Below, in pieces: positions 1-23,419 of a DNA stretch of 24,000 nucleotides (positions are counted from its first letter, which is position 1; the number at the start of each line of letters is the position of its first letter). Source of the stretch: Candidatus Saccharimonadota bacterium (GTDB lineage: Bacteria > Patescibacteriota > Saccharimonadia > Saccharimonadales > 2-12-FULL-41-12); contig JAYUAP010000146.1 in assembly GCA_043741255.1 (NCBI GenBank), positions 1 through 24,000 on the forward strand, written 5' to 3'. The translations under genes were made by a program, and so were the position numbers. The notes beneath the pieces were generated by a model. It did not search any database. It was not told where the DNA came from and worked only from the letters and a program-made list of their open reading frames with translations.

Positions 1-90
1 ACTGCATCAACTGCATCAACTGCATCAACTGCATCAACTGCATCAACTGCATCAACTGCATCAACTGCATCAACTGCATCAACTGCATCA
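1..90. repeat. perfect 9-bp tandem repeat ACTGCATCA x10, reaching the window edge
   Basis: Ten identical head-to-tail copies at 1-90. They are in frame with the minus-strand ORF (GTT GAT GCA = VDA). Confidence 0.95.
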
Positions 91-242
91 ACTGGATGGT
101 TATCTACTGCAACGCCTGCATCAACCGGATGGTTATCTACTGCAACGCCTGTGCGTATGAAATACAGACCTCTTTCGACGTCTACGGTTGCTTCGTCGCC
201 TTCTTTATGCGCTAAATGATCTTTTAGGAATGTAATTTGCAT
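1..242 (-). CDS. hypothetical protein, N-terminal fragment (ORF runs off the left window edge) with (Val-Asp-Ala)n tandem repeats
   Basis: ATG at 242-240 with the frame open down to base 1: MQITFLKDHLAHKEGDEATVDVERGLYFIRTGVAVDNHPVDAGVAVDNHPVDA(VDA)n. It is missing from the ORF track only because the window truncates it. It is on the same strand as the structural genes. Function not recognisable. Confidence 0.6.
   Translation of the reverse strand, partial: MQITFLKDHLAHKEGDEATVDVERGLYFIRTGVAVDNHPVDAGVAVDNHPVDAVDAVDAVDAVDAVDAVDAVDAVDAVDA
94..159. repeat. 33-bp tandem duplication
   Basis: GGATGGTTATCTACTGCAACGCCTG occurs at 94-118 and again at 127-151. On the minus strand this encodes GVAVDNHPVDA twice. 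Confidence 0.9.
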
Positions 243-319: not shown

Positions 320-383
320 GTAAAATAAATTTACTATTTATGTGTAAAATAATTTGCATATATGGTTTTTAGGCGTATATTTG
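320..383 (+). promoter_or_regulatory. Bacteroidota-type promoter (-33 TTTG, -7 TATATTTG) with two tandem GTAAAATAATTTGCA-like boxes
   Basis: GTAAAATAAATTTAC at 320-334 and GTAAAATAATTTGCA at 344-358 (containing TTTG 353-356). A 19-nt spacer follows, then TATATTTG at 376-383, 25 nt before the ATG at 409. The same architecture and the same 19-nt spacer occur at 11026-11088(-) and 22904-22966(-). Confidence 0.6.
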
Positions 384-2807: not shown

Positions 2808-3467
2808 TTATTTTAAATTTAATAATTGTGAAAATGATTTTAACGTCTCTAAGATAAGCGGCTTATCGTTGCTAGTGTCAGGCTCTGACGGCTCACTGGA
2901 AAGTGCTTTTAATAAGTTCTCAATCTGAACCATTCTCGTGTCGGAGTAGTCAAGATTATATGCTTTAGTCAATAGCTCCATGAAGCCGTAGACCGATTTT
3001 ACTGATTTAATACCTTGTACCGTGCTTAGCTCATTTGCCCCCCAACTCGATAAGAATGAGTACTCCATTAGCTTGTACTCAGTAATGATCTTTTTGTTCT
3101 TTTGGTCCCGTTGCAGTATCTGATAACCTATTGATAGCTCTGCGTTCATGCCGCTTTCGTGCATCAATTTCACATCGGTAAACATGTCTTTGCCTAATGG
3201 CTTATTCATGTTAAACTGTGTTGTGGTCAATAGTCCATAACTGTCTTTAGGATCAATTAGCAATGGTACGCCTATCATCATTGTAGGATTGTGATCCTTT
3301 AAAACTCGAATGCGCTTAAAGTTCTCCGTGACAGTCTTGTCGAATGCTCCGGGGGCAGATATATCCTTATCGGAATCCTCGTTATTATAGGCGTTGGCAT
3401 AGGCTTTTACTACGCCTTTGCTCTCGTCTAAGTCTTTAAGCTCGTAGGATAATTGTTTGAAATCCAT
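2808..3467 (-). CDS. prohead maturation protease, HK97 family
   Basis: 219 aa, between the head morphogenesis and capsid genes. The N-terminal pattern GVVKAYANAYNNEDSDKDISAPGAFDKTV...RVLKDHN is typical of caudoviral prohead serine proteases. Confidence 0.8.
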   Translation of the reverse strand: MDFKQLSYELKDLDESKGVVKAYANAYNNEDSDKDISAPGAFDKTVTENFKRIRVLKDHNPTMMIGVPLLIDPKDSYGLLTTTQFNMNKPLGKDMFTDVKLMHESGMNAELSIGYQILQRDQKNKKIITEYKLMEYSFLSSWGANELSTVQGIKSVKSVYGFMELLTKAYNLDYSDTRMVQIENLLKALSSEPSEPDTSNDKPLILETLKSFSQLLNLK

Positions 3468-4242: not shown

Positions 4243-5627
4243 GGTGTGCTTGCATTATCCATTACCCCCGGACTCACATCGTCAATCCTCTGGACATTCG
4301 TAGGCATCCAAACCACGTCCATGCCGTCATCCGGTAATGTCTCATAGCCGAATACTGTACGTTTCTCATTAGGCGTAACAGGTAATAGGTTCAACGCCTC
4401 AGCTTGTTTTTTCATGTCCTCCTGCATTTCAGGTAGTTCGGTCACGTCCCACTCGATTACGGTGTTCTCATAGCCTTTAAACCTTGGCAACCACGATTTG
4501 TTCAACGCGTTTTGCAATAAAACTAAATCGGGCTTAATGTCGTCGGTTATGAGTTGCTTACGAGCTTGATTTGTATCGGTGCTGCCTAATGAAGCCTTAC
4601 CATCGTTGTTTAGTAATTCGTCTGGGAAATTCAAGACATTGCAAATAGTTTTTCTGTCCCATTCCAAGTATTCGAAGGGTCTAAGTTCTTCAGTTGTCAG
4701 GCTTATGCGTTGGAAGCCTACCTCAGCAGAGAATGCCCCTATTTTGGCTAAGCGTCCTGGGCTTTTATCCATTTCGGTTAGCTGCTGTTTAGCTGTTTGA
4801 GCTTGTTCATAAGTCCACGGTGTGCCTTTCCCGTACATAAAGCCGAAAGCCCCCGAAGATTGAAGCATTTTAATGTTATTATCTATCGCGCTGTTTTGGC
4901 TATTTATATTACGAAGTGCCGCTTTTAGTGGAGATTGGCCGTAAAGGTGCGAGCCTTGAAAGTCAAAGTTAGGATTAACGTACTTCACGTGCATAATGTC
5001 TTCTACTTCAAATCGGATCCACTGTAAGCCCTCAATGAGCATGTAGTAGTCAATCGGATTTTCAGTAGTTAGCATCGAAGCGTCTTTCTTAAGCACGATT
5101 TGCATAAGCTGAGACGGCAAGACGTATGTTTGTATTGGTTGTTCTGCTCTCACGCCTTCTTTAGGCGATAGGTCATATTGGTAATAGTTACCTGTAAGTT
5201 TCATGTACGTTTTGTACAACCCCCATATATCCGCCCATGTTTGGGTCGGGTTCGGGTCGTCAAGCGGGAAGGCTTTCTCTTCCGCCTTATAGGCTTTTAT
5301 CTCTAGCTTTTTACGCTTAATGTCTTGCATTAGCGTTAAGTTACCTTTAGTCGCTAAACCCATTTGCTGCAAAGACTTATAGGCGGATTTATCCTCTATG
5401 GCTTTGATGCAATAGGGCACACTCACGGTCTTTACGGTAGCTTTGTTGATGCAGGCGTAGACGTCAGGATTGGTATTATACCCCTTTTCGAGATAAGTCT
5501 TTCCGTTTGCATCGTACTTAGTCGGCATATCGCCCAACCATTGGTAAAACGCCTTGTTGAAAGAATTACTTATCGTTTGTTTATCGAATAGTCGAGCCGC
5601 TAAAGATTGTATGAAGTTCTGAGCCAT
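4239..5627 (-). CDS. portal protein
   Basis: 462 aa, positioned between terL and the gp7-like gene. Size and overall composition fit HK97-family portals. The call rests mainly on synteny. Confidence 0.8.
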   Translation of the reverse strand: MAQNFIQSLAARLFDKQTISNSFNKAFYQWLGDMPTKYDANGKTYLEKGYNTNPDVYACINKATVKTVSVPYCIKAIEDKSAYKSLQQMGLATKGNLTLMQDIKRKKLEIKAYKAEEKAFPLDDPNPTQTWADIWGLYKTYMKLTGNYYQYDLSPKEGVRAEQPIQTYVLPSQLMQIVLKKDASMLTTENPIDYYMLIEGLQWIRFEVEDIMHVKYVNPNFDFQGSHLYGQSPLKAALRNINSQNSAIDNNIKMLQSSGAFGFMYGKGTPWTYEQAQTAKQQLTEMDKSPGRLAKIGAFSAEVGFQRISLTTEELRPFEYLEWDRKTICNVLNFPDELLNNDGKASLGSTDTNQARKQLITDDIKPDLVLLQNALNKSWLPRFKGYENTVIEWDVTELPEMQEDMKKQAEALNLLPVTPNEKRTVFGYETLPDDGMDVVWMPTNVQRIDDVSPGVMDNASTP

Positions 5628-5653: not shown

Positions 5654-7162
5654 TCAAAAGAAAAAAGTTTCTATGGGCTTATCGAGGTCAAAGCGTTCTC
5701 GCATCATAAACATGTCCATCATATCTGGCGATTGACCGTTAAGCTTGGCTTTCATCGCCCCTTTTTTGATTATGCACAATTTACCGTCTTGGTCCAGTTT
5801 ATCCCTCTTTATGGCTTTACGCTCGAATAACAACCGTTGCCTTACGGTCATTTTCTCGTCGTACATCGTATTTGCGACCTTCTCGGATATTTTGTATAAT
5901 CCATCTTGCACCTTCTTGCCTGAGCGGTAATAGCATTGCGTCTTAGCGTTGTAATAGCGCTCAGGCCTCCCATAGTCGGGCTCGTGAGGCTTTAAGTCTG
6001 GATTAGGGAAAGGCGACCCTCCGTTATGGAATGGGATTGCGCCAGGGATAAAACCCTCAATAAAGCCTCCTACCCCGTCGTTATCGTAGCATATATGGCG
6101 ATTCTGCACCGAGTGTTCTCGCGCCATTAGCTTAATTGCGTCTACAACCTCGTTGCCTTTAGACTTGGCGATAATGCGAATGTCGACAAGCTCTCGACCA
6201 TACCAACATCCGATAATAAACTTATCTGAGCCTTCTAAGGCAATATCTGCCGTAATGTATCTCTGAGTATCAGGAAGATCGTAAACGTTGTGGAACATGC
6301 CCAAAAAGGCGCTATAATCGTAGATGTCATGATCTGATAGAACTACTTTCCAGTTCCCTTTGAGTAAAGCTGCTTGTGTTTCGCTATCTTGGGCGATGAG
6401 GTTTCCAAGGTATGCGGGGTTGGTTTTTAGAAGCTCTTTATTGTCGTAGATGCTGCCGCTTATGAACGTTACAGACTTAACGAACTCGTTAGGGTCTATA
6501 CCGGATTGCTCGACTGCCTCTTCGAGGATGTGCCACCCCTTCTCGATAGCCTCAGCTTTAGTATCGCCCCAAATGTAGTTATCGCCATCGACGACCAAGT
6601 AGCGCAATACCCCGTCGCGCTCTGGGATTGGGTAGCCTGTCTCCTGATCTATCCACCAAGATATGAACTCTGCTACCCAACTATCGGGATCAGGATTGCA
6701 TGTGGCACGAACGTAGGGGTTAACACCGCATACTGAGCGGTTACGGGTCAAAAGATAGAAAAACATCTTCTTAGGGAAGTGTGTAAGCTCGTCGAATTCG
6801 ATAAGAGGGATCTGTGACCCTTGCCAGTCATACATGTTCTTTTCGTACTCCAGATGCGTGAACTTCACTTTGCTTTCGCCAAAATCCCATTCAAGAGAAG
6901 ACTCTCGGGGCGTTCCGCCTGCTTGGGCGTAGATGCTCATTGAAGTATCCCAAAGGGCCCCTTCGGCTTTGATCTGTGGAGTAGTTCGTCTGAAACAAAC
7001 AACCCCAAAGCCAGGAACGTGTTTATGCCTTAAGTTTTCAAGTAGCAGGCTGTATGTTTTACCAACTCCCGCAGCGCCTCCGCCGATAGCTATATCGGCC
7101 GAAGTGCTTAAGAACTTCATTTGGTATCCTGGTTGAGGGCGAACTACATTTGTTATTGACAT
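5654..7162 (-). CDS. terL: terminase large subunit
   Basis: Walker A GGGAAGVGKT, Walker B-like LIEFDELTHF, and a C-terminal nuclease-sized domain. 502 aa, directly upstream of the portal gene. Confidence 0.9.
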   Translation of the reverse strand: MSITNVVRPQPGYQMKFLSTSADIAIGGGAAGVGKTYSLLLENLRHKHVPGFGVVCFRRTTPQIKAEGALWDTSMSIYAQAGGTPRESSLEWDFGESKVKFTHLEYEKNMYDWQGSQIPLIEFDELTHFPKKMFFYLLTRNRSVCGVNPYVRATCNPDPDSWVAEFISWWIDQETGYPIPERDGVLRYLVVDGDNYIWGDTKAEAIEKGWHILEEAVEQSGIDPNEFVKSVTFISGSIYDNKELLKTNPAYLGNLIAQDSETQAALLKGNWKVVLSDHDIYDYSAFLGMFHNVYDLPDTQRYITADIALEGSDKFIIGCWYGRELVDIRIIAKSKGNEVVDAIKLMAREHSVQNRHICYDNDGVGGFIEGFIPGAIPFHNGGSPFPNPDLKPHEPDYGRPERYYNAKTQCYYRSGKKVQDGLYKISEKVANTMYDEKMTVRQRLLFERKAIKRDKLDQDGKLCIIKKGAMKAKLNGQSPDMMDMFMMRERFDLDKPIETFFF

Positions 7163-7166
7163 AAGG

Positions 7167-7174
7167 CAAATATA
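7167..7174 (-). promoter_or_regulatory. -7 box TATATTTG located 4 nt upstream of the terL ATG
   Basis: The minus strand reads ...GCUUUUUUCG TATATTTG CCTT ATG, immediately after the terminator hairpin at 7181-7203. Confidence 0.45.
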
Positions 7175-7176
7175 CG

Positions 7177-7203
7177 AAAAAAGCTATTCGAGTTGAATAG
7201 CTT
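7177..7203 (-). terminator. intrinsic terminator-like hairpin between the small ORFs and terL
   Basis: A perfect 9-bp stem pairs AAGCTATTC 7181-7189 with GAATAGCTT 7195-7203 around a 5-nt loop. A U6 run follows on the minus strand (A run 7177-7182). The stop codon of the 48-aa ORF lies inside the stem. Confidence 0.6.
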
Positions 7204-7330
7204 GGATAAATTCGATTATTCTTTTTCTGTGTTCTGGCTCTATGCGATAGCTGAACATAACTTTTGTAGAGGTCTTTGGCTTATGTCCGCCCCGGTTATC
7301 GGATCGGTTAGGTTTTAGGTTCTGCGCCAT
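7184..7330 (-). CDS. small hypothetical protein (48 aa), possible ribbon-helix-helix DNA binder
   Basis: MAQNLKPNRSDNRGGHKPKTSTKVMFSYRIEPEHRKRIIEFIQAIQLE. The ATG overlaps the upstream TAA (TAATG). A basic N-terminus is followed by a short strand-then-helix pattern like Arc/CopG proteins. The ORF is below the 60-aa cutoff of the ORF track. Confidence 0.45.
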   Translation of the reverse strand: MAQNLKPNRSDNRGGHKPKTSTKVMFSYRIEPEHRKRIIEFIQAIQLE

Positions 7331-7494
7331 TAATTTAAGATTAAATAGCATCTGCCATTGTGGATATTCACAATATATTCCGTACCTGTTTTGGAGAATC
7401 TAATTTCGTGGTTTTTTTTCATTGCTGTTCTTGGGAAATAGTACGCTCCTGTGTAAAATACCGTACTGTCTGTCATTATCACTGGGTAGCTCAT
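7330..7494 (-). CDS. small hypothetical protein (54 aa)
   Basis: MSYPVIMTDSTVFYTGAYYFPRTAMKKNHEIRFSKTGTEYIVNIHNGRCYLILN. It starts 2 nt after the stop of the 103-aa ORF and its stop is coupled to the next ATG. It is below the ORF-track cutoff. Confidence 0.45.
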   Translation of the reverse strand: MSYPVIMTDSTVFYTGAYYFPRTAMKKNHEIRFSKTGTEYIVNIHNGRCYLILN

Positions 7495-7496
7495 GG

Positions 7497-7808
7497 TTAT
7501 TTAGTTAAATTAATATTATAATTTCCTGATTTTATTTGAGAATCGCAAAAATGGTCTTGTAAAATCGCCATACTCATTGCGGATTTTTCTTTAGCATACA
7601 TTCTTGATGCGTTTGCTTTAGCTTTCTCAGAAACAGGCTCTGCTGCTCTCTTGTAAACTTTAGCTTTTGGCATTTCGGTTACTTCAACAACTTCAACAAT
7701 TGAAGTTTGAAACATTTTAACTTTACCTTTTGGATCCTCTGTAATTGTGAACGCTCCTTTTTCTCCTGTTACTTTGTAAGTGATTCCTTTTTCGATAATT
7801 GCTTCCAT
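7497..7808 (-). CDS. hypothetical protein (103 aa)
   Basis: ATG-initiated ORF on the operon strand, preceded by TATATTTG (7844-7851). No recognisable motif. Confidence 0.65.
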   Translation of the reverse strand: MEAIIEKGITYKVTGEKGAFTITEDPKGKVKMFQTSIVEVVEVTEMPKAKVYKRAAEPVSEKAKANASRMYAKEKSAMSMAILQDHFCDSQIKSGNYNINLTK

Positions 7809-7843
7809 AATATTTGTTTTAGTGTTTAGCTTTATTGCTGAGA

Positions 7844-7851
7844 CAAATATA
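7844..7851 (-). promoter_or_regulatory. -7 box TATATTTG upstream of the 103-aa ORF
   Basis: Perfect TAnnTTTG 35 nt upstream of the ATG at 7808. No clear -33 TTTG is present. Confidence 0.35.
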
Positions 7852-7906
7852 CGGCGACTATTTGGATAATGTATTACATTTTAAAACTTTAACATAATTT
7901 TAACAT

Positions 7907-8347
7907 TTATTCTCTACCATTGCTCGGAAGTTCAAAGATAGTTACTTGCCCTACCTTCTCGCCGTCACTGGTCACATCGAGCTTATCGCCGTATTTGCGA
8001 GGCGCCTCTTTGCCTAACCTCCATTTGATTGTATCAAGCAATAGCCTTCTGTGGTGTATCTGGTCTTTTGTAGTAATTGTTACGCCGTTAGGCCCTATTG
8101 TAGTTTCATCACCCATAATAGGCGTTTCGGCTATTCTTATCATCTCGTCGTAGAGCGCTTCGGCGCTGAGTTCTTTCGCGCGCACGTATTTTTCTTCAAA
8201 GCCTTCTTCGGACTTTAGCCAGCTGTAGAACCCAGTACGGGACGGCATATTAGGCTCATCGAGTATATTGCCCAAAGTCTTGCCCGATTCTAAGGCTTTT
8301 ATAACTTTTTTGAAGGCTACGAGCTTCTGGGAGGGTGTATAGGCCAT
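7907..8347 (-). CDS. terS: terminase small subunit
   Basis: 146 aa. An N-terminal HTH-like region is followed by the C-terminal pattern RRLLLDTIKWRLGKEAPRKYGDK, common in small terminases. It is the first gene of the packaging module. Confidence 0.7.
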   Translation of the reverse strand: MAYTPSQKLVAFKKVIKALESGKTLGNILDEPNMPSRTGFYSWLKSEEGFEEKYVRAKELSAEALYDEMIRIAETPIMGDETTIGPNGVTITTKDQIHHRRLLLDTIKWRLGKEAPRKYGDKLDVTSDGEKVGQVTIFELPSNGRE

Positions 8348-8370
8348 TTCTGTTATTATTCTGTTCGAGA

Positions 8371-8399
8371 CAAAGATAATTAATTTTTATGTAAACAAA
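8371..8399 (-). promoter_or_regulatory. candidate promoter of terS (-7 TATCTTTG, -33 TTTG, 17-nt spacer)
   Basis: The minus strand reads cTTTGtttacataaaaattaatTATCTTTG, followed by 23 nt and then the ATG at 8347. The -33 box overlaps the first GTAAACAA iteron. Confidence 0.45.
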
Positions 8400-8740
8400 G
8401 ATAAACAATGATCGTTTACTCGTTAAGCCTTATATCCGTTGAGGTCAGATAGAAGTAAACAAAGTAAACAAAAAAGTCTCAGGATATATATAATACGTGT
8501 GTACGCATATTATATATACGTGTATGTACGCATTATCTTATATATTATTTTATTACTATATTTAATTAGTATTATTGTTTACATTGTTTACATCCTTGTT
8601 CCCGCCAATGGCTGCACGGGGTTCAAGCGTAAACAACCATTGTTTATTATTGTTTACCATTGTTTACTTTTCGGTTTTAAGCACAAAAAAGCGCCTTTTT
8701 CGAGGCGCTTCGCGTAAACAATGATTTTAGTATTGTTTAC
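8391..8740. repeat. noncoding boundary element R1: GTAAACA/TGTTTAC iteron array around an AT-rich core; homolog of 22968-23277
   Basis: Exact 7-mers start at 8391, 8455, 8464, 8629 and 8714 (GTAAACA) and lie within the TTGTTTAC copies starting at 8575, 8584, 8650, 8660 and 8733 (TGTTTAC). Degenerate copies start at 8401, 8413 and 8640. The core 8481-8574 is about 80% A+T. Four blocks are shared with R2 in the same order and spacing. Confidence 0.85.
8684..8710 (-). terminator. intrinsic terminator after the 138-aa ORF (end of the early/replication module)
   Basis: Stem AAGCGCC 8689-8695 pairs with GGCGCTT 8704-8710 around an 8-nt loop, with a U run on the minus strand (A run 8685-8690). Confidence 0.7.
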
Positions 8741-8742
8741 AT

Positions 8743-9159
8743 TCAATAAAGTGTTTTTAAACAGTTAATATTTATAAATTCGAGTCCTAAACGCTCGGAT
8801 TCCTTCTTTATGGCGTTAAGAGTGCTGCCGTGGCGTTTTTGCGACGTAAAAACAATATTTTCGTATTTACCTGCGTATTTCTCGATCTCTTTGGCTATGC
8901 TCTCGCGATCAGCGCAATTAACCTCAACGGCTTTGGGTATTTTAGCTAATAATCCAGCTTTTCCCGAGTCTTGGGCGCCTGTCAGGTATATAAGGCCTTT
9001 TGGCTTTGGTTCAAATTTAGCATATCCGTTTTTAGGATCCCAAAGCAACGTTCCGTCGTCAATCGCCCAGATTTGTGTATGTCTCGGCTGCATAAGCTTT
9101 GTGTCTTTCGGCAGTAGATCGCCAAAATGGCCCCTTAATTCCCATTCGTCGGGACTCAT
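8743..9159 (-). CDS. hypothetical protein (138 aa)
   Basis: ATG start overlapping the upstream stop (ATGA). It contains GAQDSGKA, which resembles a P-loop but is not canonical. Function unknown. Confidence 0.7.
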   Translation of the reverse strand: MSPDEWELRGHFGDLLPKDTKLMQPRHTQIWAIDDGTLLWDPKNGYAKFEPKPKGLIYLTGAQDSGKAGLLAKIPKAVEVNCADRESIAKEIEKYAGKYENIVFTSQKRHGSTLNAIKKESERLGLEFININCLKTLY

Positions 9160-9353
9160 ACCTGATGAATTATCAATTGCTCTACTGGACCATATATTCC
9201 GAAAGAGCCGTCCTCGAACTTAAGGTAGGTGCCACAGTCTTGCACGGGCTTAAAAAGTACGGCCTCTAAATTATGGTCAAAGCCTTTATATTCAGCGATA
9301 TCATTTCTACCTAAACTATAATTTTTCCCTATTTCTAAATCTTCTAATCTCAT
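9156..9353 (-). CDS. hypothetical protein (65 aa)
   Basis: ATGA overlaps at both ends tie it into the gene chain. Confidence 0.6.
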   Translation of the reverse strand: MRLEDLEIGKNYSLGRNDIAEYKGFDHNLEAVLFKPVQDCGTYLKFEDGSFGIYGPVEQLIIHQV

Positions 9354-9541
9354 CTGCTATTAAAATTAAATTGATAATTGTGTTTTTTACATATTCGTAT
9401 TCTCGATCTTTTAGGCTTCTCAGTCCTTTTAGTGAGAATAAACGCCGCTACTATTTCTAGCGCCTCTGCGCCATTCCCTGCATCAAATCGATAGTTTTTA
9501 AACTGGATGCCTGTTCTTGGATTATGCGGTATGTACACCAT
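9350..9541 (-). CDS. hypothetical protein (63 aa)
   Basis: ATG start 3 nt after the stop of the upstream ORF. The C-terminus is basic. Confidence 0.55.
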   Translation of the reverse strand: MVYIPHNPRTGIQFKNYRFDAGNGAEALEIVAAFILTKRTEKPKRSRIRICKKHNYQFNFNSR

Positions 9542-9544
9542 AAC

Positions 9545-9889
9545 TTAATTGTTTTTAAATTTGAAACTGCCCTTAGGTGTGGCACCTACTTTTGCTTCGA
9601 GCCTCAGGATCTCAGCCGTCAGGGATTCATTTTGATTAATAAGTTCGGCATTTAGCCCTTCCGTTTGATCTAAAAGGGTGCCATATTCAACTTTAGAGAT
9701 CTGTAAGGCTTCCTGCGCAGCGGCTAAATTTATTCTAAGGCTATTGTTCTCCCTGAGCATGTGATCAAGGACTGCATAAACGCCTACGCCTGCTTTTAGT
9801 GAATTGACAGCAGCTTTGAAGTCCGCATCTTGTTCGTATCGGCGTTCCCCGTTTTGGAAATTCTCTAATATTTCGTCTAGTGTTTTCAT
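9545..9889 (-). CDS. hypothetical coiled-coil protein (114 aa)
   Basis: ATG-initiated ORF with a heptad-like sequence rich in Leu, Glu and Ala. No enzymatic motif. Confidence 0.65.
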   Translation of the reverse strand: MKTLDEILENFQNGERRYEQDADFKAAVNSLKAGVGVYAVLDHMLRENNSLRINLAAAQEALQISKVEYGTLLDQTEGLNAELINQNESLTAEILRLEAKVGATPKGSFKFKNN

Positions 9890-9892
9890 AAT

Positions 9893-10009
9893 CTACCATC
9901 TAGTTTCTTTTGGTGCAATATTGCGTTGATCTCCGTAAAGATCTTTCGAGATCTCGTCAATGTTTAGAGCCAGTGTAATTATAAAGGCCAGTAGGGGGAT
10001 TAGTATCAC
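9893..10009 (-). CDS. possible small membrane protein (38 aa)
   Basis: The GTG start overlaps the upstream TGA (GTGA). Sequence: MILIPLLAFIITLALNIDEISKDLYGDQRNIAPKETRW, with a hydrophobic N-terminal helix. The ORF fills an otherwise empty 116-bp gap. Confidence 0.4.
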   Translation of the reverse strand: MILIPLLAFIITLALNIDEISKDLYGDQRNIAPKETRW

Positions 10010-10208: not shown

Positions 10209-10547
10209 TTATAATTTTCTTAAGAAGTTGAGCATCTCAGGGAAGTTCTCCGGATCTAATTCTCTAATTCTGTTTGCCCCGAAGGTGTTAATTTTTGCTT
10301 TGATTTCTGCTCGATGGTTCTGCGCTTTATGACTTACGAGTTCTCTCATTTCGGAGAGCGCGTCGTTGAATTCTAATTTTTTACAAGGTTCAGACTCAAC
10401 TCTTTTACAAGGTTCAGACTCAACTTTTTTAAATTCTTTTCGGCGTTTAGCCTTTACAATAAAATCGTACATAATAGGCAATATGATTGTTAAGAATATA
10501 CCTAAAACCACGCCGATTGCGCCATTAATTAATTGCTCCGAGTTCAT
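10209..10547 (-). CDS. hypothetical membrane-anchored protein (112 aa) with an internal 8-aa duplication
   Basis: N-terminal TM helix (GAIGVVLGIFLTIILPIMY) followed by the duplicated motif VESEPCK(R/K). Confidence 0.65.
   Translation of the reverse strand: MNSEQLINGAIGVVLGIFLTIILPIMYDFIVKAKRRKEFKKVESEPCKRVESEPCKKLEFNDALSEMRELVSHKAQNHRAEIKAKINTFGANRIRELDPENFPEMLNFLRKL
10381..10428. repeat. 24-bp tandem duplication (23/24 identical) inside the 112-aa ORF
   Basis: TTTACAAGGTTCAGACTCAACTCT at 10381-10404 and TTTACAAGGTTCAGACTCAACTTT at 10405-10428. Confidence 0.9.
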
Positions 10548-11025: not shown

Positions 11026-11088
11026 CAAATATACAACCTTTTTCGAACTGTGCAAATTATTTTACTTAAAAAATGCAAATTATTTTAC
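11026..11088 (-). promoter_or_regulatory. Bacteroidota-type promoter with tandem GTAAAATAATTTGCA boxes
   Basis: On the minus strand GTAAAATAATTTGCA occurs twice (plus-strand 11074-11088 and 11051-11065). The -33 TTTG lies at 11053-11056, followed by a 19-nt spacer and TATATTTG at 11026-11033. The distal box overlaps the SNF2 stop codon. Confidence 0.65.
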
Positions 11089-14665: not shown

Positions 14666-17074
14666 CTATTTTTTACGTTGATAATATTTTTGTTTCCCAT
14701 ACTCGCCAAAATTGGCGGTAGTCGGCCTGTAGTCCCAATCCTCTAATGACTTCATAATGTCATTTATGTCACGTGTGAGGTATCGACTCATGTCCTCTTT
14801 GTTCTTGCCTAAGCACTCACACCAGATCTCAGCCATGCACACTTTATCGCGTTTAATACCTTTTCCATCGTTCTCAATATCGGTAAAATCTCTAAAATAC
14901 ATACGTCGTTCGTCGATACCCATATTCCTCCAATCTTTCGGCAATTCTCGCTCTAAATAGAACTCAATAACGCCTCTGCGGTCGTCAACCTCGCAATGGT
15001 CGCTCTGCTCCTGACCTGCTATCTGCTCGGCTTCTGCGCTGAGGTATAATTTCTCCCCCTTGTCGAATAGGTGTTTAGCCTCTGCCCATATTTGAGCTAC
15101 TTCGCCGTCAAGGTCTGTCCACACGTCTTTTAAAATGTCCTCTGACACAACGTCGATAGGCCAAAACCTCCTATTACCAGTAGCGTCAGTGAATAGGTCT
15201 CTTTTATTTGAAGAGGCTATGAATACATTCTGTCTTGGGAACGACTCTACGGCTCTCCCGTAAGCAGGTCTAAACGAATCGACCTGCTTAGATATATAAT
15301 GTTTAATCGCTTCGGCGTCTGCTTTTCTAAATCCCGACATTTCGGCAATTTCCATAAGCCACGCGCCTTGCAATTGTTCAAAGGCCTGGTTGCCATGTAC
15401 GGTCATAAAAGTATCGCTGTACCAGATCCCTCCTAGCTTATTCACAAATGAACTTTTCTTTGTGCCTTGCGGCCCTATAATGGTAAGAACTGAATCGTAT
15501 TTGCAACCAGGATTGTAGATTCTTGCTACTGCAGCTACAAGGCACTTGCGTATAACCTCGCGGGTGTAAATATTATCGGGTGTGCCGAAGTAATCGATAA
15601 GCAGGAAGTCTAAACGGCTTGTACCATCCCAGATAAGCCCGTTTAAAAAGTCTTTTATTGGATGAAAGGACTTTTTCTCAAACTCCATTGCGAGCGAGTC
15701 ATCTATTTTAGTTACTCCCGTAATGCCGTATATCGTTTCTAAATAATTCCTAACGCCTGAGTAGTCTACATTCTTTATCGGTTCGGGAGTTCTGAGCCTC
15801 CTCCACGGCAGAGTCTTAAAGATATATCTTTTATTATCGAATAGATTTTGTTTAAAACAATCCCTTAGTCTTGCATCATTTGATAAGATGAGGTTAATGT
15901 TGGGCGCACTAGAGAGGTACGCCCCTTTACTATCCGTGTCAAGCTCACTCATCCAGTCGATAGAGTCCTGATCGCCTTCTACGGCTTCGGGCCCCTCCTC
16001 GAAATCGTCGAAATCCTCTGCGAAATCATATCGTACTGCCTCCATAGTCTCAGCGGCAATAAGCTTCTTAACCTCTTTATCTTTTAAGGCCAGTGTCTCC
16101 ATCGCCGCAAAGCTTTTAGGCTTTGAGTTCGGCTGTGCATTCTCGTCGTCCAAATGCCCGTAAAGGTGCAAGCGAACTAAATCAAAGGCGTTTGAGGTTT
16201 TGCCGCTGCATGGATCTGTACCGTGATGCGAGAAGGCGAAGGTGTCCTCGTAGATAATAAGTCCTGCAGCTGTTGAGCCTTGGGTGTACGTATATCTATC
16301 CTCGTGTGCCGTTTCTACGTACTGCGCGCTCAAATACTTTTCGATCACTTCGGTAATTGAATAGGTGCGGCAAAATGCGCCGACTATACCGCGTTTCTCT
16401 CTTGGGTCTGCCTGCTTTTTCGCATTCTCTCCTAGCTCTCTGAGCATCTGCCCAGAAGTAGGCCAAAGGCTTGTATCAGTCCAGTCGATATACTCCCCAA
16501 GTACCTCATCGACATTAAGCCAAGGGCCGTCCTGCACCTCCATATAATAATCGATGTCTTTTGGCGTTGATGGCCAAAACATAAGCCTGTTAGTCTCAAA
16601 GGTTGTATTGTCAAATAGATCGATGCCCAAATCGCCCGCAACCTTTCGAGCTACTGCGGCGTACTCGTCCGGTGTAGCTTCTCGATCTAGCGGTATTAGC
16701 AGTCTGTAACGCGGCGTAGTCTTGGAGTGCTTATGCGTTCCGTGCAGGATCGCGGTATTGTCGAATTGTAGGGTGAAATCACTCCAAAAATCCATGTGCG
16801 CGAAATCCAAGTCAAGTGTCAAGAGTTGGCGGTGCATAACGTTTTTAGGGTTGCGGCGACCATTTCTAAGGTACCCGCCGACATATCCGCCGACATCCTT
16901 TATTTTACCCTGCTCCTGCTTGCTAAACGACATAAACTGTTTATAGGTTTCACGGGTTCTGGTATTATCGGCGATACGCTCCATAAACTTTGAGAATAGG
17001 ATCGATTCGTTTTTCCAAAGTTTAGAAGTCGCCGAGTTCCCAGTGGCTATTTGTATTTTTCCGTCGTATTGCAT
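14666..17074 (-). CDS. DNA primase/helicase, VirE (virulence-associated protein E)-type P-loop NTPase with an N-terminal primase-like domain
   Basis: 802 aa. Walker A IIGPQGTKKSSF and a Walker B-like WLMEIAEM. Size and position in the replication module match phage VirE/D5-like primase-helicases. Confidence 0.75.
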   Translation of the reverse strand: MQYDGKIQIATGNSATSKLWKNESILFSKFMERIADNTRTRETYKQFMSFSKQEQGKIKDVGGYVGGYLRNGRRNPKNVMHRQLLTLDLDFAHMDFWSDFTLQFDNTAILHGTHKHSKTTPRYRLLIPLDREATPDEYAAVARKVAGDLGIDLFDNTTFETNRLMFWPSTPKDIDYYMEVQDGPWLNVDEVLGEYIDWTDTSLWPTSGQMLRELGENAKKQADPREKRGIVGAFCRTYSITEVIEKYLSAQYVETAHEDRYTYTQGSTAAGLIIYEDTFAFSHHGTDPCSGKTSNAFDLVRLHLYGHLDDENAQPNSKPKSFAAMETLALKDKEVKKLIAAETMEAVRYDFAEDFDDFEEGPEAVEGDQDSIDWMSELDTDSKGAYLSSAPNINLILSNDARLRDCFKQNLFDNKRYIFKTLPWRRLRTPEPIKNVDYSGVRNYLETIYGITGVTKIDDSLAMEFEKKSFHPIKDFLNGLIWDGTSRLDFLLIDYFGTPDNIYTREVIRKCLVAAVARIYNPGCKYDSVLTIIGPQGTKKSSFVNKLGGIWYSDTFMTVHGNQAFEQLQGAWLMEIAEMSGFRKADAEAIKHYISKQVDSFRPAYGRAVESFPRQNVFIASSNKRDLFTDATGNRRFWPIDVVSEDILKDVWTDLDGEVAQIWAEAKHLFDKGEKLYLSAEAEQIAGQEQSDHCEVDDRRGVIEFYLERELPKDWRNMGIDERRMYFRDFTDIENDGKGIKRDKVCMAEIWCECLGKNKEDMSRYLTRDINDIMKSLEDWDYRPTTANFGEYGKQKYYQRKK

Positions 17075-20013: not shown

Positions 20014-20095
20014 TGGAAAAATTAGGATTCAAACCTAAATTTCTGGTATATTTTATTCCGCAGTTCGAGCGCTTTATCCGTTAAACCATTTTCCC
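20014..20095 (-). ncRNA. tRNA-like element 2 (82 nt; 7-bp acceptor stem with G3:U70 and A73, D and T arms, no canonical anticodon arm)
   Basis: The minus strand reads GGGAAAA UG GUUU AACGGAUA AAGC G CUCGAACUGCGGAAUAAAAUAUACCAGAAAU UUAGG UUUGAAU CCUAA UUUUUCC A. I tried every register of the 31-nt insert and found no 5-bp stem with a 7-nt loop. Confidence 0.5.
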
Positions 20096-22903: not shown

Positions 22904-22966
22904 CAAATCTACAACTATTTTTCAATTGCGCAAATCATTTTACGTAAAAAATTAAATTATTTTTAC
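22904..22966 (-). promoter_or_regulatory. Bacteroidota-type promoter with tandem upstream boxes (early operon)
   Basis: On the minus strand: GTAAAAATAATTTAA (22952-22966) and GTAAAATGATTTGCG (22929-22943, with TTTG at 22931-22934). A 19-nt spacer follows, then TAGATTTG at 22904-22911. It aligns almost base for base with the promoter at 11026-11088. Confidence 0.65.
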
Positions 22967-22967
22967 A

Positions 22968-23277
22968 GTAAACAATGCATAATTATATAAGGGGCTGATT
23001 TTAAAGTACTTAAGATTAAAAGTAAACAAAGTAAACAATAAACAAAGATTCGACAAACTATATAAAGGTCTGTATGTGTAATATATAAATACTATGTAGG
23101 TATTATATTATATATTATTATATTTATAAAGTTAGATAGTATAATAGTATATGTTGTTTACATTTTAGCTGCCGCCAACGGTGGTATGGGCGGCAGAGAT
23201 ATACGATACTGGAATACTTTGTATATCTCGGTTTACTTTTCGATATTAGGCATAAAAAAAAACGACCTTACGGCCGT
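22968..23277. repeat. noncoding boundary element R2: second copy of the iteron / AT-core / GC-hairpin / terminator arrangement
   Basis: GTAAACA starts at 22968, 23022 and 23031 (plus a degenerate copy at 23039). TGTTTAC lies within the TTGTTTAC at 23154-23161 (plus a degenerate copy at 23230). Blocks shared with R1: a 19-mer (23020-23038), a 10-mer (23154-23163), GCCAAYGG (23174-23181) and a 12-mer (23231-23242). Confidence 0.85.
23253..23277 (-). terminator. intrinsic terminator after the lysis gene region
   Basis: The minus strand reads ACGGCC GUAA GGUCGU followed by a U9 run. The stem spans 23262-23277 and the A run on the plus strand is 23254-23262. Confidence 0.75.
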
Positions 23278-23419
23278 TTATGATTTCTTAATCTCGTCGA
23301 ATATCTCGTCGACCCTTCCGACGTTGTCAGTCCCTTTTACGCCTTTTTGGTTATTAATTACCATTTGGAGAGCAATAACTCCTATTGTTTTTAGGATCCT
23401 CCCAAATAGGCTTCTCGGT

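Follow-up and report, generated by a model that had tools for sequence, protein, structure and literature searches.

Phage P4 possesses two iteron-bearing cis regions, ori and crr, which are located several kb apart and are both bound by the initiator. The genome of the Bacillus phage SPP1 contains two related, distant origins, oriL and oriR, bound by one initiator, G38P. In the P4 alpha protein, a DnaG-like primase, an SF3 helicase and an origin-binding winged helix are combined in one polypeptide (PMC2777425). The SPP1 oriL is mentioned in a work that also describes a predicted non-coding origin downstream of the replication module of Streptococcus phages (PMC13575424). The Rep proteins of SaPIs act both as initiators and as helicases, and their C-terminal winged helix recognises iterons (PMC9371898). 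The SaPI origin is located immediately downstream of the rep gene. Its 6-12 iterons of 5-6 nt surround an AT-rich centre, two or more on either side and in opposite orientation; binding and melting by Rep require no ATP, and SaPI5 possesses a primase fused to Rep, the 790-aa PriRep5 (PMC9371898).

The window analysed in the present study, a stretch of DNA of 24 kb (24,000 nucleotides), comes from a Flavobacteriia-type phage. It includes two related non-coding elements, R1 and R2, which, judging by the sequence comparisons, are probably replication origins of the phage recognised by its own Pri-Rep primase-helicase. All genes of the region are located on the minus strand. In the order of transcription, the region begins with the endolysin gene, R2, two small ORFs, the genes of an exonuclease and a Gp2.5-like SSB, an Rfam tRNA match, and the genes of PolA and the 802-aa primase-helicase. 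These are followed by the genes of a 92-aa VRR-NUC-type endonuclease, a methyltransferase and an SNF2 helicase, small ORFs, R1, terS, terL and the portal gene. Two genes of this list are of particular importance for the analysis:

7907-8347, minus strand: terS (small terminase, phrog_1482), the first gene downstream of R1
14666-17074, minus strand: 802-aa primase-helicase (phrog_256), proposed as the initiator; VapE-like ATPase, winged helix at the C-terminus

R1 adjoins terS, being located 44 bp upstream of it. The two elements bracket the replication module, and each is placed between a terminator and a promoter-like TTTG...TAnnTTTG sequence. Both are 5.9 kb distant from the primase-helicase gene; the next gene starts 6 nt past the primase-helicase stop codon, and just one stray copy of the motif was found near this gene in the window. 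Protein conservation falls sharply across R1, from 60-78% identity for the primase-helicase to about 25% for terL. A comparison of the window with the relative L125 gave 78% identity for PolA and 73% for the primase-helicase, as against 35% for terS and 25% for terL. The bracketing position and this drop agree with the designation of R1 as a boundary element in the preliminary description of the sequence. The GC and AT skews, calculated for the window and for the complete genome of Croceibacter phage P2559Y, are monotonic, because every gene is located on one strand, and carry no information on the origin.

Structure of the elements R1 and R2

In the 24-kb window, 17 copies of the 7-mer GTAAACA/TGTTTAC were counted, compared with 3.46 ± 1.70 expected, and none of 100 shuffled sequences reached this number. 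Ten exact copies are located within the non-coding R1 (8391-8740) and start at positions 8391, 8455, 8464, 8576, 8585, 8629, 8651, 8661, 8714 and 8734. About 0.05 copies are expected per 350 bp, and the chance of finding ten in R1 is approximately 1e-19 by a Poisson estimate. Three degenerate copies are also present in R1, namely ATAAACA at 8401, CGTTTAC at 8414 and TGTTTAT at 8641. Four of the remaining exact copies belong to R2 (22968-23161) and three are located elsewhere (3178, 14218 and 20645).

The recount reproduces the ten exact and three degenerate copies of the preliminary description and its expectation of about three copies per window. The starts of two reverse copies, given there as 8575 and 8584, are corrected to 8576 and 8585. 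The two exact copies that it listed outside R1 and R2 (14218 and 20645) are present, and a third one, at 3178, had been missed. The repeat unit itself had been taken as the 7-mer; the comparison of 69 distinct clusters from related sequences, among the matches listed, shows that the informative iteron is the 9-mer RTAAACAAT. In these 69 distinct clusters, neighbouring iterons are spaced by 9 bp in 150 cases and by 10 bp in 89 cases, which is about one helical turn.

Followed in the order of transcription, R1 opens with two outer iterons and a terminator. An array of three tandem iterons and one inverted copy comes next and is separated by the spacer of about 37 bp from an inner pair, GTAAACAATGTAAACAAT. 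Beyond the AT core of 104 bp there is a second inner pair, which is inverted, and then the outer inverted iterons:

8743-9159: 138-aa ORF, the last gene before the R1 terminator
8734-8740, minus strand: outermost iteron, read as GTAAACA and preceding the terminator in the order of transcription
8714-8720, plus strand: iteron GTAAACAAT, its orientation opposite to that of the 8734 copy
8688-8711, minus strand: intrinsic terminator of the replication/early operon, a 9-pair stem followed by a T run
8629-8667: upstream iteron array, three tandem copies with 10-bp spacing (8661 and 8651 exact, 8641 degenerate) and the inverted copy 8629
8592-8628: spacer of about 37 bp with a higher G+C content and no significant or conserved hairpin
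8575-8591, minus strand: inner iteron pair TTGTTTACATTGTTTAC with 9-bp spacing, at the edge of the AT core
8471-8574: AT-rich core of 104 bp, 79% A+T, the proposed DNA unwinding element
8455-8470, plus strand: the other inner iteron pair GTAAACAAAGTAAACA, pointing towards the 8575-8591 pair
8391-8420: downstream outer iterons, 8391 exact, 8401 degenerate (ATAAACA), 8414 degenerate and inverted (CGTTTAC)
8371-8399, minus strand: putative Bacteroidota-type terS promoter with the -7 box TATCTTTG at 8371-8378

Two iterons on each side of the core point inward, 8455 and 8464 facing 8576 and 8585. In the upstream array, the inverted copy at 8629 forms the imperfect palindrome ATAAACAATGGTTGTTTAC in the minus-strand reading. 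Several other elements of the preliminary description are present as it gave them. The section 8481-8574, described there as about 80% A+T, contains 79.8% A+T compared with 58.6% for the window. The internal direct repeat of the core, ACGTGTGTACGCAT at 8495-8508 and ACGTGTATGTACGCAT at 8518-8533, represents purine-pyrimidine runs, and the minus-strand terminator is found at 8688-8711. Among the 100-bp windows richest in A+T, the R2 core ranks first and the R1 core third.

The GC hairpin that had been placed in the spacer of R1 did not withstand the analysis, since its folding was no better than that of shuffled sequences (z -0.43) and no counterpart fold was present in the relatives L021 and L092. 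The Rfam scan of the window gave no match in R1 or R2, the sole match being the tRNA at 20014-20095.

The sequences TTTG and TAnnTTTG constitute the promoter consensus of Bacteroidota. Promoters were called by this pattern, and a sigma-70 promoter scan was set aside as not meaningful for a Bacteroidota phage. The TTTG (-33 box) of the putative terS promoter is located at 8396-8399, 17 nt upstream of the -7 box, and overlaps iteron 8391.

R2 (22968-23279) is located 14.57 kb away from R1. The alignment of the two elements, suggested in the preliminary description, showed 74-77% identity over about 330 bp and thus a true paralogue. Its features are as follows:

22904-23279: R2 with its promoter-like part, at the start of the replication module, more degenerate than R1
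23260-23279, minus strand: terminator
23169-23196: 8-bp stem
23155-23161: single inner iteron
23046-23153: AT core, about 82% A+T
23022-23045: three iterons
22968-22974: outer iteron
22904-22940, minus strand: promoter-like TTTG...TAGATTTG

The inward-facing layout with two iterons per side is only partly present in R2, where one iteron faces three. R2 may be a weak or auxiliary site and perhaps not a working origin, because it is consistently poorer in iterons than R1 and in the window has one good site on one side. In the genomes of the window, P2559Y, L142 and L125, R2 is closer to R1 of the same genome than to R2 of the other genomes, and this likeness within genomes points to gene conversion or repeated re-duplication as its probable source.

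Distribution and position of the element in related phages

The blastn search with the region 7000-10000 against 50,697 phage records found Croceibacter phage P2559Y alone, and the match covered just the iteron region. The genome of P2559Y has the same order of the module and contains equivalents of both elements, that of R1, upstream of terS and rich in iterons, near 43.1 kb and that of R2 near 23.7 kb. Scanning viral contigs for an exact iteron pair gave at least 120 loci, and the replication module is common to 62 of the 122 loci compared, among the matches listed. As a rule, the element is accompanied by this module. The element is represented by at least 71 clusters in at least 64 sources, and at least 46 elements have the strict layout of a pair, a core of 85-155 bp and an inverted pair. 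Among the matches listed, 36 of 70 distinct clusters have two forward copies before and two reverse copies after the largest gap (median 105 bp), compared with 1 in 16 expected at random; the opposite orientation pattern was found in 4 of the 70 distinct clusters. The flanking pairs of the relatives are nearly invariant, and the sequence of the core varies freely but stays AT-rich, often with RCGTATA/GCGTACA runs.

A set of 30 relatives selected by protein homology alone also contains clusters at the R1 and R2 positions. In these phages, AAACAA occurs 7.7 and 9.3 times per 500 bp at the two positions compared with about one in the background, and R1 is always richer in it than R2. The conservation in related phages, which the preliminary description had named as a way of checking the element, was found for both the element and its positions, in P2559Y as well as in the viral contigs.

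The element occupies three positions in related phages. It may lie upstream of terS or of the replication module, or directly follow the primase-helicase gene. The position varies with the relatedness of the primase-helicase. Where this protein is at least 50% identical, the stretch from the primase-helicase to the VRR-NUC gene contains no more than three AAACAA in 40 of 40 loci, and the element is absent there. Where it is 38-47% identical and the iteron has a GTAAAC core, the element follows the gene directly in all 15 loci, most of the distant loci of this kind having come from the motif search itself, which implies an ascertainment bias. The gap that holds the element in these 15 loci is 265-385 bp long, and 1,199 bp in L080. 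At the element of L021, located between the primase-helicase and VRR-NUC genes, no terminator or TAnnTTTG box is evident.

An isolate genome of Sporosarcina contaminans (Bacillota) contains identical iterons behind the same gene, among phage genes, with a purine-pyrimidine AT core resembling that of R1. Two more phages, Bacteroides phage F2 and Staphylococcus phage phi12, were chosen by protein similarity only. Phage F2 has its own iteron, GTAAACGG, and keeps the full architecture. Of the 23 copies found, where six were expected, 11 belong to the gap after the gene; no second iteron cluster was found in its 29.8 kb. The primase-helicase of phi12, the ORF of which is broken in the record, is 40% identical, and another iteron, GATGCAACA, occupies the same gap. 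The position behind the primase-helicase gene is taken to be ancestral, because it is common to SaPIs, Staphylococcus phages, Bacteroides phages and the Sporosarcina phage-like region.

The locus L107 contains the element upstream of a terS of another family (phrog_51 instead of phrog_1482), and no homologue of the primase-helicase was found in the 6.4 kb available upstream of this element. Together with the Sporosarcina copy, the different terS family of L107 shows that the element is independent of the host and of terS.

The scan of 185,579 bacterial species genomes gave 98 matches. Most of them are chance occurrences or simple tandem arrays of a 9-mer, such as (GCAAACAAT)n, as in the Draconibacterium contig L162. 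Inverted clusters similar to the element were present on a few bacterial contigs, and those contigs that also match the replication module (L153, L204 and L230) are phage-like. None of these was seen at a recognisable chromosomal origin. The literature search for the iteron strings retrieved primer sequences only, and no description of the iteron was found in the searchable literature.

The candidate initiator and competing explanations

The 802-aa protein encoded at 14666-17074 contains a VapE-like domain according to Pfam, and its residues 369-793 align with residues 12-455 of SaPI1 Rep1 (PDB 7pds) with an E-value of 6.7e-73, through the C-terminal domain. In the AlphaFold model of residues 655-802 (pLDDT 82.8), the protein ends in a winged helix with the order strand-helix-helix-strand-strand, and the sole significant structural match of the modelled C-terminal domain is 7pds (E 1e-6). 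Homologues of this phrog_256 primase-helicase were found in 628 phage records, and there are many Streptococcus phages among the carriers. The conservation of the C-terminal domain is not clearly above that of the rest of the protein, and no specificity residues could be discerned in the alignment with the primase-helicase of phage F2, which has the GTAAACGG-type iteron. This VapE-like homologue of SaPI Rep was not on the list of candidate binders in the preliminary description; the comparison favours it over the proteins listed there.

It is proposed that the winged-helix C-terminal domain of the primase-helicase would bind the 9-bp iterons RTAAACAAT, which are one helical turn apart and face each other across the core. 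Hexamers formed on either side of the core might then open its 104 bp of AT-rich DNA with the purine-pyrimidine runs. The first primers would be made by the N-terminal primase part, and replication would be continued by PolA, the Gp2.5-like SSB and the exonuclease of the phage. In the clade of the window, the origin seems to have left its place behind the initiator gene and to have been duplicated, one copy at each non-coding border of the replication module. There it would share the gap with the terminator of the upstream operon and the promoter of the downstream one, which in the case of R1 is the terS promoter. The change of the iteron sequence with the clade of the initiator, while the position or architecture is kept, supports an origin served by Rep.

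Some observations count against the origin function. The element of the window is 5.9 kb distant from the initiator gene, its iteron is 9 bp long rather than 5-6 bp, no homologue of the primase-helicase is present near the L107 element, and R2 has one good iteron on one side. The iteron is also near-invariant across primase-helicases that are 38-76% identical, and such constancy needs conserved recognition residues in the initiator.

The preliminary description had left open the choice between a replication origin, a pac site and a switch region bound by an HTH protein. Comparison with relatives favours the origin and disfavours the other two. As operators of a phage regulator, the repeats would control the early (R2) and late (R1) operons by looping or promoter occlusion. 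Such a transcriptional switch would account for the location of R1 and R2 exactly at the operon borders, between a terminator and a promoter-like sequence, and for the overlap of the -33 box with iteron 8391; a dimeric regulator would also agree with palindromic pairs like GTAAACAATCATTGTTTAC of P2559Y. However, the 73-aa and 49-aa HTH proteins (the latter given earlier as 48 aa) have no homologue in any relative that carries the element, while the iteron is invariant, and homologues of the 138-aa protein are present in the closest few relatives only. Besides, the element is located inside the replication operon, between the primase-helicase and VRR-NUC genes, in 15 distant relatives, and a Bacillota genome, with its different promoter grammar, contains the same iterons. 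The switch is therefore unlikely and does not stand as a separate explanation, but it is compatible with the proposed origins as a secondary regulatory effect of Rep binding.

The second alternative, a pac site, assumes that the small terminase binds repeats just upstream of its own gene. R1 is indeed located 44 bp upstream of terS, the richest cluster is found upstream of terS or terL in most close relatives as well, and the P2559Y record begins inside the AT core of its R1 equivalent. This record is, however, marked as circular, so its start point may be arbitrary. The paralogue R2 is located 14.6 kb off, beside the replication genes, and the distant relatives have the element behind the primase-helicase gene, away from terS. 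Moreover, an identical iteron is combined with terS proteins that are just 33-58% identical, and with a terS of a different, unrelated family in L107. Packaging initiation at R1 seems very unlikely in view of these data.

The repeat arrays could also be recombination joints, serving as patches of homology for the exchange of modules, or a small mobile unit with inverted ends. The drop of conservation across R1 seen in L125, the three different genomic positions in related phages and the greater resemblance of R2 to R1 of the same genome would fit this explanation. At the same time, two copies of one genome reach an identity of only about 75%, R1 and R2 keep their positions in a clade in which proteins have diverged to about 50% identity, and the strict orientation of the iterons, their helical spacing, the AT core and the link to a Rep-type initiator are left unexplained. 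We consider this explanation hardly credible; recombination at R1 would more plausibly be a consequence of the conserved sequence than its purpose.

The least probable explanation is that of sites for a host nucleoid protein or a DnaA-like factor recruited by the phage: the 9-mer is near-invariant across phages with proteins 38-76% identical, and TTGTTTACA matches the DnaA box TTATCCACA at six of nine positions by our own comparison, but the same iteron is found in a Bacteroidota phage (P2559Y, host Croceibacter) and a Bacillota genome (Sporosarcina), it becomes GTAAACGG or GATGCAACA with more distant primase-helicases while the position is kept, and the clusters linked to the module in bacterial genomes are phage-like, none being located at a recognisable chromosomal origin.

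If R1 and R2 are origins served by the primase-helicase, they might also act as a pair, although this extension is doubtful. Bound Rep would bracket and perhaps also bridge the 14.6-kb module and couple the onset of replication to the early-to-late switch, gene conversion would keep the copies alike, and the invariant arrays would serve as joints for the swapping of replication modules by phages that are otherwise unrelated and have Bacteroidota or Bacillota hosts. The coupling of initiator occupancy to the transcription switch is suggested because iterons overlap the -33 box of terS and adjoin the early promoter of R2.

Comparison with described origins

Few environmental phages have a known replication origin, and this also applies to the abundant marine phages of Flavobacteriia; the element provides a searchable, sequence-defined family of putative origins with a named candidate initiator. 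It also gives a rule for the search in phages with a phrog_256 protein, which would concern the gap that follows the gene or else the two ends of the replication module. In evolutionary terms, the comparison suggests that an origin once located behind the initiator gene was moved and duplicated, so that each border of the module now has a copy. In view of the drop of conservation across R1, origins of this kind may mark the joints in the mosaic of phage genomes or even give rise to them. Possible uses in Bacteroidota include a phage-dependent replicon and a tool for resistance based on an origin decoy.

The placement of R1 immediately upstream of terS resembles that of the pac sites of the SPP1 type, but the R1 element is not unique in the genome and, in relatives, is tied neither to terS nor to one terS family. 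As to origins, SPP1 is likewise a tailed phage in which two related regions are separated by a long distance, and it differs in having a separate origin-binding protein, a DnaB-type helicase and a loader, and in the location of oriL inside the initiator gene. The Streptococcus phages have a predicted non-coding origin after the replication genes and resemble the window in this placement, and their origin is present in a single copy. The similarity to P4 includes two iteron regions, 14.57 kb apart in the window, and a primase-helicase with a winged helix and a matching domain order; the iteron sequences are unrelated, and the P4 alpha primase is DnaG-like.

The similarity to SaPIs includes the initiator, which is homologous (7pds, E 6.7e-73) including the C-terminal winged helix (structures 7pds and 7ola), and the fusion of a primase to Rep, 802 aa in length in the window and 790 aa in PriRep5. 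The iterons of R1 flank an AT core, with at least two inward-pointing copies per side, and number ten exact and three degenerate compared with 6-12 in SaPIs. In relatives with a primase-helicase no more than 47% identical, the element is located directly downstream of the rep gene, as in SaPIs. The differences concern the iteron, which is 9 bp long (RTAAACAAT) instead of 5-6 bp, the distance of 5.9 kb between the putative origin of the window and the initiator gene, the presence of two copies, and the carrier, a full tailed phage with PolA, SSB and exonuclease instead of a satellite. Compared point by point, the sequence of R1 appears to fit the description of the SaPI origin, the exceptions being the longer repeat and the location away from the gene. 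Origins that combine iterons with an AT-rich region and depend on a self-loading Rep helicase are of a known kind; the novelty of the proposed origins is a widespread member in tailed phages, with a longer iteron and an unusual placement of two copies at the borders of the replication module.

Module boundaries at R1 and related elements

The replication-module proteins of loci L125, L127, L126 and others, taken from other sequences compared with the window, are 60-80% identical to their counterparts in the window, whereas directly across R1 (8391-8740), the iteron and AT-core element proposed as an origin, terS is 35-58% identical and terL about 25%. This fall in protein identity indicates that R1 marks a mosaic joint between modules.

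The deposited record of Croceibacter phage P2559Y begins within the AT core of the element equivalent to R1 (42870-43153 plus 1-60). This start point may be arbitrary, since the record is marked circular, or it could represent an assembly break or a terminus. In the window, the primase-helicase gene (14666-17074, minus strand) lies almost exactly centrally between R1 and its paralogue R2 (22968-23277), 5.9 kb from each. The primase-helicase gene of P2559Y is not placed midway between the R1 and R2 equivalents, so the arrangement in the window is probably a coincidence.

An element was also found in Bacillota, in the isolate genome of Sporosarcina contaminans CCUG 53915 (L204, NZ_JBHTLT010000001.1, 48001-56000). 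It is located at about 7140-7440 of this locus, behind the primase-helicase gene, and its iterons include the same GTAAACAAT as elsewhere and the variant GTTAACAAT. The 125-kb contig carries phage genes encoding thymidylate synthase, MazG, a phrog_256 primase-helicase, a VRR-NUC-type endonuclease (phrog_93) and an SNF2 helicase, and the region containing them may be a prophage.

Simple arrays resembling iterons were detected in contigs of Draconibacterium metagenome-assembled genomes. In L162, copies of the 9-mer GCAAACAAT/GTAAACAAT follow one another head to tail in a long array at 4753-4987, N-masked in part and in a single orientation throughout, and L151, L160 and L193 contain 9-bp-spaced runs of the same orientation. 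As simple tandem repeats without the inverted architecture and the AT core, all four were rejected as R1-type elements.

Promoter-like boxes, tandem repeats and a tRNA call

Four copies of a 12-nt box are present in the window.

Copies of the shared box
347-358, plus strand, AAATAATTTGCA
11051-11062, minus strand, AAATAATTTGCA
11074-11085, minus strand, AAATAATTTGCA
22929-22940, minus strand, variant AAATGATTTGCG

The copy at 22929 constitutes the -33 region upstream of the TAnnTTTG box at 22911, and the TAnnTTTG box at 11033 has one member of the 11051-11085 pair as its -33 region. The copy at 347 precedes ORF 409-693, the lone plus-strand ORF. The four copies look like a single family of putative early-type promoters.

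Tandem repeats in the window
1-94, perfect 9-bp repeat ACTGCATCA, 10.4 copies
69-151, 33-bp repeat, 2.5 copies, overlapping the ACTGCATCA array
10379-10431, 24-bp repeat TTTTACAAGGTTCAGACTCAACTC, 2.2 copies, 96% matching

The 9-bp and 33-bp repeats at the extreme start of the window (1-151) are probably within a gene running past the edge, and the 24-bp repeat falls within a 112-aa ORF (10209-10547).

An Rfam tRNA match (20014-20095, minus strand) scoring 40.5 bits, above the gathering score, is located between the SSB and PolA genes. ARAGORN found no tRNA in the whole window, including this interval, and the Rfam call may represent an atypical or decayed phage tRNA.

Resemblance to forkhead proteins

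The iteron core of R1, GTAAACA, is identical to the eukaryotic forkhead consensus. Forkhead domains bound to GTAAACA, e.g., 7yzd (E 0.7), are among the weak matches, below significance, to the fold of the predicted winged helix (model of 14669-15112). The forkhead resemblance of both the iteron and the winged helix is treated here as coincidence or convergence carrying no evidential weight.
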